A stretch of DNA of 64,000 bases from NCBI GenBank assembly GCA_963742415.1, contig CAVULX010000004.1, positions 224,001 to 288,000 on the forward strand, written 5' to 3'. The notes under the pieces were generated by a model. The model was given only the letters and a program-made list of their open reading frames with translations. It was not told the DNA's origin and searched no databases. The position numbers were made by a program, and so were the translations under genes. The stretch is from an uncultured Parachlamydiaceae bacterium (GTDB lineage: Bacteria > Chlamydiota > Chlamydiia > Chlamydiales > Parachlamydiaceae). Below, in pieces: positions 30,655-33,668 of this stretch (position 1 is the first letter of the stretch; every line of letters begins with the position of its first letter).

Positions 30655-30800
30655 TAACATAAGTCGCAAATAATTAAATTTATTGTCTCTCTGTGATCTC
30701 TGTGGACTCTGTGGTTGAATTTTAATAAACCACAGAGATCACAGAGATCACAGAGGTTTTTTAAACTTGATTACACTCAGTAATTTTCAACTTACATTAA
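30655..30800. mobile_element. MITE-like unit, family B (left copy)
   Basis: Imperfect ~25-bp terminal inverted repeats, internal ctctgtgat/cacagagat 9-mer hairpin; near-identical inverted copy at 33533-33668. Confidence 0.85.
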
Positions 30801-30812
30801 TTACGCAGAGAC

Positions 30813-33452
30813 CTATTGTTTGTTTAATTTTAATACATCTAATCGCTCTTCATAAGTTTTTATTTGAGTACTCAGGCTCGATTTTTTCCAACTTTTATTA
30901 GTGTGATCCCTTTGAAATTTTAATCGACCTAGATGTTTCTGTGTCTTTTCAATTTTTTTTTGTTTTTCTTGAGATCCTATAGCGCCGGTCAAATGGTTCC
31001 CGACGTTTTGCATTCTTGGAGTTGTGGAAATTGTATGAATAATGAGTGGTATGTTTTGATCTCGGGAAGTTGTGGTAGTTGTAAAACTAGAGGGTAACAT
31101 GTCTTGATCATCGGAAAGTTCTGTGGTTTGATATTCAGGATCATGTTGAATTTGAACATATGGAGAAACGTCGATCGATTGGCGACTGAGGTTTTGATCT
31201 CGGGAAGTTGTGCTGGCTGTAAAACTAGAGGGTAGCATGTCTTGATCATCGGAAAGTTCTCTGGTTTGATGGTCAAGGTCATGTTGAATTTGAACATATG
31301 GAGGAATAGTGTGAGGCATATCATTTCTTTTTTGAGTTCGAGATAATGCAACCAAAATTTGAGTCATATCCATAGAAGGGTTCATGGGATCCATGATGTT
31401 TTGGATGCTTGAAGTCGTGGTGGTTGTGGAAGGAAGGGATAGCTCGTTTTGAATTTCCAAAGGTTTCGCGGTTTGATTGCCAAGATATGAATTTTGAAGA
31501 GAAGGAGTGGTCTCAGCCATTTTTATAATATTATCTAGTTCTTGATGAAAATCCGCATTTGGGTTTCTGTAACTGATATTTTGATGATGGCATTCAATTT
31601 GGACTTCCGAGCTTTTATCAAAGGCATTGATAATCTGCAAAGGTTCGCGAAGTCTCTCGCCATTTGGAAGATAGAATTTTCCTTTACTATCAAGTAATTC
31701 TTTGATATTTGGTCCAAACGTCTTATCCGTTATCTCATAACTAATTCTTTTTGCATCTGCGACATACTCTTGAAGACGTTGCAATGATTCTGCTGTAAAA
31801 CCTCCATCACTTGCTAATCTCTCGCTTACAAAAGACTCTATGGTATTTCGTACTATATGAAGAGAGTCTCGTCTTAAATTAATCCACTCAGTGGCTAAAC
31901 CTTTGTGAAAATTCTGGTTTGTCACGCTACCGTCTATATTAACAGAAGTTGTTGAGCCGTGATGTTTTCTAACTTTAACTGCGTTTACCCCTAACCCATG
32001 GTCAATGGCTTTGATAGCTTCTTCATAGTTAATAGATTTTTTCGGATGGCTTTCAAGAGATAATTTGTACCCTTTTTTAATGTATGCTTTTAGGCTTGCT
32101 CCCCATTCCGCTTCGGTTTGTTGTAAGTGGGCGGCTTCTTTTTGGATGAGATTCATTTCTCGTCGTTCTAGCTGTTCTACAGGATTAGTACTTATATTTT
32201 GTTGTGAATTTCCCTCAATCTGAAGAGCTCTTTCATCCAGCGTGCCGTTCTTAGCCTGGAAATATACGGGGAGCTGTTCGACAGGAGCAGCATTTTCGAT
32301 AAGCATTGTTAAGGTCGAGTCATCTAGCCTTTTTAAAAATTTCATAAGATCGAGTCTTTTTTCACCCGCAATAGGGCTCTTATGTTTTCCATCAATTAAT
32401 TTTGGCTCGGTTAGTTTATCAAAGGCTTTTTGTTCTAATTGTGTTCTTTGTATCCTGATGTTTTCAAGTTTAGCATTTACTGCTCCATTTATAGCGCCAA
32501 AACCTGCACCCATTAACATAGCTGGTCCAAGATTTGACTCAAGGTCTCTCCCATCCATTTTATTTCTCGACATGCAAGTTGCTGCGGCTTGCACTCCACC
32601 CGCAAAAGCGCCCCGAGAAATACCAGCTTGGATGGTTTTTTCCGCGATCTTTCCTAGAGCAGGTGTAGAGAGAATTTTGCTCGCACTGAAGCCCACCCCT
32701 GCTCCTAACGCACCCGATGCCGCTCCCTTCAATATATCCTTACCAGTAAGTTCATCCCCTGATACAATTTTCTCTGCCACTTCAGTAGCTACTCCCGCTC
32801 CAGCTTGAGCTGCTACACCTAACAGAGGTACAGCTGCTGCTCCCAATGCTGATGCTGCAACAAAAGGAGCAGCAATAGCACCTCCGGCCATTACGACTCC
32901 ACCTGCAGCCCCGCCGACTGCTCCAATACAGACTTTTTCAGCACAATCTTCGTAGCTGAAGTTCGTTTCCGTTGTGTTTATTCCATAAATGACAGCTTTT
33001 ACGCCTGCTCCAGCGGCTGTGCATCCTGCAAAACCAATTGCAATGATACCGGTTGCAGGAGCCCAAAGCGGAGCAGTAACTGCAGCTGTCAGGCCCGCAG
33101 CGGCAACAACACCCCCGAATAAAATAGCGGTAACTTTCTTCCGATATCCAGATGGTTTTTTAAAAAGAATTTGTATTTTATTATCAATCTGAGCGATTTG
33201 AACTTCGAATTTATCTTTTTCAAGTTGTTTAATTATTTTTTTTGAACAATTTAAGTCATTATTATTCTCGTCGAGCAAAATGAATAATTCAGAATTGTGG
33301 AGTGAGTCATGTCTATAATGAAGCTCTTTAAATTTTTCATTTATTAAATCTATTTTTTTTAATTCCTTTTTTTCAAAATCGATATATAGTTTCCATTCAT
33401 CGTTTCCGTTGAATGTATAAGTCTTTTCAATTTCTTTTGTATGATTAACCAT
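30813..33452 (-). CDS. 879-aa orphan protein with Gly/Ala-rich hydrophobic region, candidate effector/toxin
   Basis: Long ORF; GxxxG-rich hydrophobic stretch at about aa 105-325; 46-aa tandem repeat; basic C-terminal helix. Confidence 0.8.
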   Translation of the reverse strand: MVNHTKEIEKTYTFNGNDEWKLYIDFEKKELKKIDLINEKFKELHYRHDSLHNSELFILLDENNNDLNCSKKIIKQLEKDKFEVQIAQIDNKIQILFKKPSGYRKKVTAILFGGVVAAAGLTAAVTAPLWAPATGIIAIGFAGCTAAGAGVKAVIYGINTTETNFSYEDCAEKVCIGAVGGAAGGVVMAGGAIAAPFVAASALGAAAVPLLGVAAQAGAGVATEVAEKIVSGDELTGKDILKGAASGALGAGVGFSASKILSTPALGKIAEKTIQAGISRGAFAGGVQAAATCMSRNKMDGRDLESNLGPAMLMGAGFGAINGAVNAKLENIRIQRTQLEQKAFDKLTEPKLIDGKHKSPIAGEKRLDLMKFLKRLDDSTLTMLIENAAPVEQLPVYFQAKNGTLDERALQIEGNSQQNISTNPVEQLERREMNLIQKEAAHLQQTEAEWGASLKAYIKKGYKLSLESHPKKSINYEEAIKAIDHGLGVNAVKVRKHHGSTTSVNIDGSVTNQNFHKGLATEWINLRRDSLHIVRNTIESFVSERLASDGGFTAESLQRLQEYVADAKRISYEITDKTFGPNIKELLDSKGKFYLPNGERLREPLQIINAFDKSSEVQIECHHQNISYRNPNADFHQELDNIIKMAETTPSLQNSYLGNQTAKPLEIQNELSLPSTTTTTSSIQNIMDPMNPSMDMTQILVALSRTQKRNDMPHTIPPYVQIQHDLDHQTRELSDDQDMLPSSFTASTTSRDQNLSRQSIDVSPYVQIQHDPEYQTTELSDDQDMLPSSFTTTTTSRDQNIPLIIHTISTTPRMQNVGNHLTGAIGSQEKQKKIEKTQKHLGRLKFQRDHTNKSWKKSSLSTQIKTYEERLDVLKLNKQ
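31053..31303. repeat. Intragenic 138-bp (46-aa) tandem duplication
   Basis: PYVQIQHD...ELSDDQDMLPSSFT..TTSRDQN occurs twice; DNA copies start at 31053 and 31191. Confidence 0.93.
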
Positions 33453-33532
33453 AATTTTTCACTCCAATATTTTTCATTCACAAGAAGATAGTTAAAGCTA
33501 AAACAAATGTCAATGGATAAAACTTTTAATAT

Positions 33533-33668
33533 TTAATGTAAGTTGAAAATTACTGAGTATAATCAAGTTTAAAAAACCTCAGTGTTCTCTGTGATCTCTG
33601 TGGTTATTAAAATTCAACCACAGAGATCACAGAGAGACAATAAATTTAATTATTTGCAACTTACGTTA
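33533..33668. mobile_element. MITE-like unit, family B (right copy, inverted)
   Basis: Reverse complement of 30655-30800 lacking one 9-nt unit and one base, plus a few substitutions. Confidence 0.85.

Follow-up and report, generated by a model that had tools for sequence, protein, structure and literature searches.

Two IS982-derived miniature elements that bracket a lineage-specific gene of an uncultured Parachlamydiaceae bacterium probably inserted separately

The genome of an uncultured Parachlamydiaceae bacterium (GCA_963742415.1; 2.69 Mb on four contigs, 42% GC; denoted G000) contains a gene for an 879-residue protein that is bracketed by two short units, L on its left and R on its right, which are inverted copies of one another. 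The gene lies in a 64,000-nucleotide stretch of contig CAVULX010000004.1 (G000:C4:224001-288000), referred to as the window. Both units belong to a family of miniature inverted-repeat transposable elements (MITEs) with ends of the IS982 type, and each is bordered by a perfect target-site duplication (TSD) of its own. The best explanation of this arrangement, to which we assign a probability of roughly 0.85, is that L and R represent two separate insertions around a lineage-specific gene that was there before them and did not arrive with them. The original prediction had instead proposed a non-autonomous composite element or an invertible segment that moves or flips an effector-like gene; a mobile or invertible effector cassette of this kind, if real, would give obligate intracellular bacteria a novel means of reshuffling the genes by which they interact with their hosts. 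The non-autonomous, MITE-like nature of the units is upheld by their 29 copies, their terminal inverted repeats (TIRs), their TSDs and their lack of coding sequence; by contrast, the proposed moving or flipping of the gene falls, because each unit carries its own TSD. The locus is an ordinary pair of MITE insertions, and neither a mobile nor an invertible cassette.

L occupies positions 30657-30797 of the window on the plus strand (141 bp), and R occupies positions 33536-33666 on the minus strand (131 bp). When L is aligned with the reverse complement of R, the two differ by five substitutions and by two indels, of 9 nt and 1 nt, in agreement with the earlier description of near-exact reverse complements distinguished mainly by one 9-nt repeat. 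Identity amounts to 96.2% over ungapped columns, and the median over all pairs in the family is 93.9%; three family copies are closer to L than R is, and ten are closer to R than L is. The unit lengths of 146 and 136 bp given previously describe a genuine inverted pair but include two to three flanking bases per side beyond the elements proper. As also noted then, each unit has its own TIRs, of the form A[CT]GTAAGTTG[CA]AAAT, and an internal hairpin made of CACAGAGNN 9-mers. The hairpins fold strongly as RNA, with energies of -50 to -56 kcal/mol and z scores of -8.9 to -11.4, and none of 200 shuffled sequences is as stable. In L, the central CACAGAG-repeat hairpin (approximately 30688-30756) is followed by GG and six T residues on the plus strand. 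In R, the hairpin arms (33586-33605 and 33616-33635) are 100% complementary, one arm has one 9-mer fewer, and GG and six T residues follow the hairpin on the minus strand, downstream of a neighbouring ATPase gene. The inverted repeats, which measure 131-141 bp, are separated by 2726-2912 bp, depending on the arm pair considered. They enclose only the 879-residue gene together with 9 bp past the stop codon and 77 bp ahead of the start codon, so that the earlier account of a gene enclosed with about 80 bp of upstream sequence holds. An Rfam scan of the window at gathering thresholds returned no match.

The decisive evidence comes from the immediate flanks. L is preceded and followed by TAATTA (30651-30656 and 30798-30803), and R is preceded and followed by TATTTA, as read on the plus strand (33530-33535 and 33667-33672). 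These perfect 6-bp duplications at each unit overturn the statement in the original prediction that no TSD was evident. On each unit, inner and outer flank are identical, and the outer flanks of the two units are unlike (TAATTA versus TATTTA), which argues that L and R inserted singly. Moreover, since the flanks are unswapped, no net inversion has occurred in the assembled molecule after insertion. The locus thereby provides a worked example in which per-unit TSDs separate a gene that is bracketed by chance from one that has moved as a unit, and at the same time exclude net inversion.

A genome-wide BLASTN comparison of the units, a check proposed with the original prediction, recovers 29 family copies, far more than chance would yield, on three of the four contigs and reveals two genes bracketed by inverted pairs. 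Copies range from 123 to 142 bp and cluster at approximately 141, 132 and 123 bp, because 9-mers have been gained or lost in either arm of the hairpin. No copy contains an open reading frame (ORF), and in all 29 any overlap with a neighbouring ORF of at least 90 residues stays within 10 bp. Among the 28 copies having both ends, 16 show an exact 6-bp TSD and one more shows an exact 7-bp TSD; as a control, the left flank of one copy was compared with the right flank of another, which gave a match in 109 of 756 cases (14.4%; binomial P 2e-7). If one mismatch is tolerated, 24 of the 28 have a TSD of 6-7 bp. The exact 6-bp duplications read TAATTA in eight copies, TATTTA in three, TAAATA in two, and AAATTA, TATCTA and TAGTTA in one copy each, consistent with a 6-bp, TAWWTA-like target. 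Variation in the middle bases on one side is matched on the other, and the repeats therefore reflect true duplication rather than merely a conserved target. All hallmarks of a MITE are thus present: a non-coding element below approximately 300 bp, TIRs, TSDs of fixed length and multiple dispersed copies. The sequence surrounding the copies is lower in GC (39.8% versus 41.6%, P 0.0005), and the copies are clustered, with nine gaps below 15 kb compared with 4.2 expected (P 0.012). On contig C3 (G000:C3:278493-278816), two copies lie in tandem in the same orientation, 19 bp apart, with a TAATTA duplication at each. L and R are members of a well-defined, IS982-derived MITE family with a 6-bp TAWWTA target, a new family of a known type that could be used to type strains and to date insertions.

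The parentage of these elements is evident from related bacteria. A search with the 18-nt TIR, allowing up to two mismatches, in 73 genomes of the same taxonomic family identified paired sites 948 bp apart in genome G083 and further sites in G012 and G014, all three of which belong to other genera than the source genome. The 948-bp element of G083 has perfect ends and contains one ORF of 284 residues, whose product scores 212 bits on the IS982 family transposase model NF033520 (cut-off 130) and also matches PF13612 and PF01609. The ends of this insertion sequence (IS) align with both MITE ends over approximately 21 nt. Examination covered four IS copies of G083 (948 bp) and one of G012 (947 bp); four of these five have 6-bp TSDs (TAATTA, TATCTA, TATTAA and TATATA), and the remaining one, in G083, has a TSD of 7 bp. 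Hence the MITEs share with their parent IS both homologous ends and the length and target of the TSD, as expected of IS982 derivatives. The suggestion of IS982-like ends, offered at first as an unverified guess, is in this way substantiated by homologous ends and AT-rich 6-bp TSDs on a 948-bp IS982-family element of a related genus. The G083 element has no CACAGAG hairpin, and the MITE therefore cannot be derived from the IS by simple deletion. Another MITE of approximately 197 bp, with the same IS982-type ends and an interior of short TATCGT-type tandem repeats, is found in G014 (contig C361, positions ~282-477).

The IS982 transposase model NF033520 matches 44 of the 73 genomes (20 above the cut-off). 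In the source genome, whose assembly is 84% complete by marker genes, neither PF13612, NF033520 nor the transposase protein of G083 produced a match, and no longer element with these TIRs was found at up to two mismatches in 15 nt. A MITE that can currently be mobilized would share its genome with the parent IS or with the transposase; in G000, neither is found. The MITE family thus looks orphaned in this genome, its transposase lost, and the copies would at present be immobile.

Taken together, these observations fit a scheme in which an IS982-derived MITE of about 141 bp inserted twice, once into each of the AT-rich intergenic spacers that border a gene already in place. The enzyme responsible, a DDE transposase of the IS982 type, was probably supplied in trans in the past and is no longer encoded in the assembly; it would have cut TAWWTA-like 6-bp targets, which would have been duplicated at each insertion. 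The assembled arrangement would then be the one in which the units inserted. Bracketing, according to this scheme, would follow from the presence of 29 copies whose insertion or survival is confined to intergenic sequence and which are clustered in low-GC, accessory-gene neighbourhoods.

How often such bracketing would arise by chance was assessed by random placement of 29 copies in intergenic regions, which were given either equal weights or weights according to length or to TAWWTA sites. On average, 0.39-0.43 bracketed genes are expected; at least one occurs with a probability of 0.32-0.35 and at least two with a probability of 0.06-0.07, and two are observed. Units abundant enough to flank a gene by chance formed one part of the refuting condition set with the original prediction: for one bracketed gene chance suffices (32-35% of trials), for two it does so less readily (6-7%). 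The second bracketed gene (G000:C3:70587-71750, minus strand) encodes 387 residues with three matches to eukaryote-type bZIP basic regions (PF07716, 47.7 bits; PF00170, 41.8 bits), and among the 73 genomes of the family it is found in one, G000 itself. GC contents are 39.4% for the 879-residue gene and 32.6% for the bZIP gene. In this second pair, the right unit has its own 7-bp TSD; the TSD of the left unit is unreadable, with a small palindrome adjoining. This palindrome of approximately 80 bp (TATACCCAAACGACTTG...CAAGTCGTTTGGGTATA; G000:C3:70381-70460) adjoins and truncates the MITE copy at C3:70458-70593, and may be a member of a third family of small elements. The mild excess of bracketing fits MITEs that land, or are tolerated, in AT-rich accessory neighbourhoods, in keeping with the low-GC and clustered placement of the copies.

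Several points weigh against the reading of L and R as independent insertions around a resident gene. Two genes are bracketed by inverted MITE pairs, for which the probability under random placement is only 0.06-0.07, and both are lineage-specific, so that a genuine association of MITE pairs with young genes retains some plausibility. Owing to the TAWWTA target constraint, a 6-bp match between flanks is less improbable than it would be for random hexamers, and the TAATTA duplication of L is the commonest in the family. According to marker genes, the assembly is 84% complete, and it contains numerous split genes, so that a transposase copy could be unassembled. Finally, the relatives compared at the locus all belong to other genera and lack synteny past nuoN, so that they offer no empty site for comparison. 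This gene (29158-30600, plus strand; PF00361, 5.3e-71), the last of the nuo operon, is convergent with the 879-residue gene, and its product is 56-72% identical to NuoN of related genera (13 relatives). In eight relatives with 2.5-12 kb of sequence downstream of nuoN, none of the genes that follow nuoN in the window is present and synteny ends at nuoN; a NuoN scan of further genome contigs yielded only distant phyla, at 32-44% identity.

Among the alternatives to independent insertion, the one that fares best, although still doubtful, holds that the hairpin units have been retained as domesticated insulators, that is, as terminators flanking the gene. We regard it as similarly questionable that R stops read-through from the ATPase gene and that L separates the convergent transcripts of nuoN and the 879-residue gene. 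The hairpins are very stable, and the GG and six T residues that follow them face nuoN in L (plus strand) and the ATPase gene in R (minus strand), as terminators might; some effect on transcription is thus conceivable. Across the family, however, there is no orientation bias: in co-directional contexts the T-run comes after the upstream gene in 11 copies and is opposite in 12, and three copies each lie between convergent and divergent genes. In addition, other genomes do not retain the T-run next to the hairpin, a loop of 10-11 nt on stems of at least 20 bp is unlike typical intrinsic terminators, and a terminator scan did not call the hairpins.

Much less probable is that recombination between the inverted units flips the 2.7-kb gene segment as a switch. 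Repeats of 131-141 bp with about 96% identity are long enough for RecA-dependent inversion, yet a single crossover would have left L flanked by TAATTA and TAAATA; the flanks are unswapped, implying either zero or an even number of inversions. Furthermore, the best promoter-like site of the region lies inside the segment, between R and the start codon, so that the promoter would be inverted together with the gene and no switching would result. This site (33485-33513, minus strand) matches the sigma-70 consensus at 10 of 12 positions (TTGACA-17 nt-TATCTT) and is a consensus match only, in a region where the number of promoter-like sites equals the shuffle expectation. No recombinase or invertase family is represented among the 58 ORFs scanned in the window, and scans of the same ORFs at E<=0.01 and E<=1e-5 likewise revealed no integrase or transposase families.

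The weakest alternative is that of a composite transposon, in which the block of L, gene and R was or still is moved as one piece by an IS982 transposase acting in trans: the outer ends are both of the ACGTAAGTTGCAAAT type, inverted and in principle usable by a transposase, a second gene of the source genome is bracketed likewise, and MITE pairs that mobilize a cargo are known, as in Acinetobacter, where a 439-bp MITE is reported to truncate both ends of an integron (PMC3934969). As the origin of the arrangement it is contradicted by the TSD pattern and is highly improbable, for a block move would place a single duplication around the block as a whole and leave unrelated sequence next to the inner ends, whereas here a perfect TSD lies on the inner and outer side of each unit and the outer flanks differ; the right copy of the second pair is likewise bordered by a 7-bp TSD of its own, L and R both have closer kin elsewhere in the family than one another, the 879-residue gene is single-copy in the source genome, and no cognate IS982 transposase was found there.

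Separate from the question of how the pair arose, the CACAGAG hairpin is distributed far more widely than the MITE that contains it. In BLAST comparisons, MITE positions ~30-100, which correspond to the hairpin, are the only part that matches other genomes, 42 of the 73 in the family. The TIR-bearing flanks outside the hairpin match only within the source genome; the 18-nt TIR recurs in G083, G012 and G014 with other interiors. The hairpin is a palindrome of 9-nt units with the structure (CTCTGTGNN)n-GG, an AT-rich loop and CC-(NNCACAGAG)n. A strict pattern that demands two exact 9-mers per arm is found in 13 of 301 genomes of the order, distributed over at least nine families, and the reversed pattern, used as a control, has no match in any of the 301. 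Within the source genome, the strict arm order occurs only inside the L/R family (29 of 29). A second element of approximately 220 bp in the same genome is also palindromic and contains the CACAGAGNN 9-mers in swapped arm order (CCACAGAG...CTCTGTGG); its spacer is longer, and its outer arms (GACTCGAAATGTGCTTTGCC...) are of another sequence. At least three 9-mers are present at four loci of this element, one in the window (~42262-42485) and the others at G000:C3:834321, C4:881456 and C4:1297620; a further BLAST match lies at C3:198665-198876. In genome G059, the hairpin forms the core of a different MITE of 144-151 bp with ends GGCTATGTTCAC... and ...GTGAACAAGGCT; of nine copies examined, seven have both ends found, and four of these show an exact 8-bp TSD. 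In G004, the hairpin occurs within varied nested palindromes.

These occurrences tentatively suggest that the hairpin is a self-standing module, possibly a hitch-hiking mobile palindrome or a sequence-specific protein- or RNA-binding module captured repeatedly by MITEs, that may have spread horizontally among chlamydiae. Two other origins were considered and set aside. The idea of repetitive extragenic palindromic (REP) sequences and their associated tyrosine transposases (RAYTs) finds no support: a Y1 transposase (PF01797) is present in four of five hairpin-bearing genomes tested and absent from the complete genome G300, and no CACAGAG motif lies within approximately 1 kb of the Y1 transposase copy of the source genome. 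The latter is a single match of the IS200 type (G000:C4:1304441-1304755; PF01797, 81.6 bits). Nor does the hairpin seem to be part of IS982 copies: hairpin and IS982 coordinates, compared by eye, are not adjacent in G066, G048 and G009. Full-text literature searches found no description of the hairpin or of MITEs in chlamydiae. A sequence-conserved hairpin module that is common to unrelated small elements across chlamydial families constitutes a lead in its own right.

The bracketed gene (30813-33452, minus strand) encodes a protein, P0001, with a beta-rich N-terminal region, an Ala/Gly-rich helical region (residues ~101-345), a central domain (residues ~420-650), a Thr/Ser/Gln-rich repeat region in the C-terminal third and finally a Lys-rich C-terminal helix. 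Kyte-Doolittle hydropathy reveals two hydrophobic blocks of approximately 50 residues (106-155 and 174-223), and the structure model gives two helices for each of them. Inside the gene, a 138-bp tandem repeat (31053-31303, minus strand; 1.8 copies, 92% matches) encodes a repeat of approximately 46 residues. P0001 has no Pfam match and no match in a word-indexed search of 5.8 billion entries. With phmmer, 13 distant relatives were retrieved from 1.84 billion representatives, the best with 33% identity over residues 71-652 (E 2e-53), and no Pfam families were detected in these 13. A profile built from ten members matches 18 of the 301 genomes of the order, in several families and in open frames of 254-2019 residues. 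Members share a conserved N-terminal region followed by the Ala/Gly-rich helical region with a YGxNTxEExFS-like motif, and their C-termini vary. Among 40 relatives of other genera, only two marginal matches to P0001 were obtained (E ~5e-4 to 9e-4), none of them convincing, and of 112 pattern matches in metagenomes none was confirmed. Structural comparison added little: the best ESM Atlas score of 0.88 is uninformative, the AlphaFold2 model is poor (mean pLDDT 49.7), Foldseek found nothing in the PDB at E<=0.001, and a sequence profile search of the PDB gave nothing below E 0.99.

Chlamydial inclusion membrane (Inc) proteins, which are substrates of type III secretion, possess a bilobed hydrophobic domain of approximately 40-60 residues. 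P0001 resembles them in its two hydrophobic blocks of approximately 50 residues, which have the bilobed form, in its restriction to chlamydial genomes and in the variable C-termini of its relatives. Unlike Inc proteins, it has no Pfam Inc match, and its Ala/Gly-rich region of approximately 240 residues is far longer than one bilobed domain. P0001 is, to judge from its sequence, a candidate secreted membrane protein, and its family is sparse and chlamydial, with Inc-like hydrophobic blocks and no close relative.

Upstream of the 879-residue gene, an ATPase_2 gene (PF01637; 33769-35194, minus strand) is divided into two overlapping ORFs (34337-35194 and 33769-34587), an apparent frameshift. The nuo operon in the window also looks fragmented (17949-24517), with nuoC-like, nuoD-like (two pieces), nuoG-like (two pieces) and nuoH-like (two pieces) sequences present as short ORFs. 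The split nuo and ATPase_2 genes in an 84% complete, four-contig assembly suggest that it contains erroneous indels or else that pseudogenes are widespread. Elsewhere in the window, an ORF at 12796-13710 matches the Pfam family 'Protochlamydia outer membrane protein' (PF17251, 7e-49), which puts the genome with Parachlamydiaceae-like chlamydiae. A gene for HMG-CoA reductase (PF00368, 2.7e-115) lies at 40815-42095 on the minus strand and may merit attention, since the mevalonate pathway is unusual in chlamydiae.

The L/R family can be compared with several known systems. Correia elements of Neisseria, the palindromic elements of Rickettsia, and ERIC, BOX and RUP are structured MITEs or REP-like repeats: small, intergenic sequences of strong secondary structure that sometimes affect termination or mRNA stability. 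The L/R family is likewise small, intergenic and strongly structured. Correia elements, however, duplicate TA, whereas the L/R family has a 6-bp TAWWTA duplication and IS982-type ends, and the Rfam scan of the window found no known counterpart among its families.

A closer parallel exists in the Cardinium endosymbiont cOegib, in which a MITE of approximately 240 bp is derived from ISCca4, a member of the IS982 family (PMC9769881). The L/R family is similar in being short, non-coding and multi-copy, in its IS982-like TIRs and in residing in a host-restricted intracellular bacterium. It differs in that Cardinium keeps an intact parental IS, whereas no IS982 transposase was found in G000 and the matching IS is present only in G083 and G012; it also differs in its interior, a CACAGAG-repeat hairpin that is not an obvious deletion derivative of an IS. 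The Acinetobacter elements mentioned above provide the nearest precedent for the arrangement itself: their authors argue that the integron was mobilized by the MITE pair at its ends (PMC3934969). Here, too, two copies of one MITE bracket a cargo with no transposase between them. In contrast to the course argued for that integron, L and R each have a TSD of their own on both sides, and the block they enclose was not moved as a unit.

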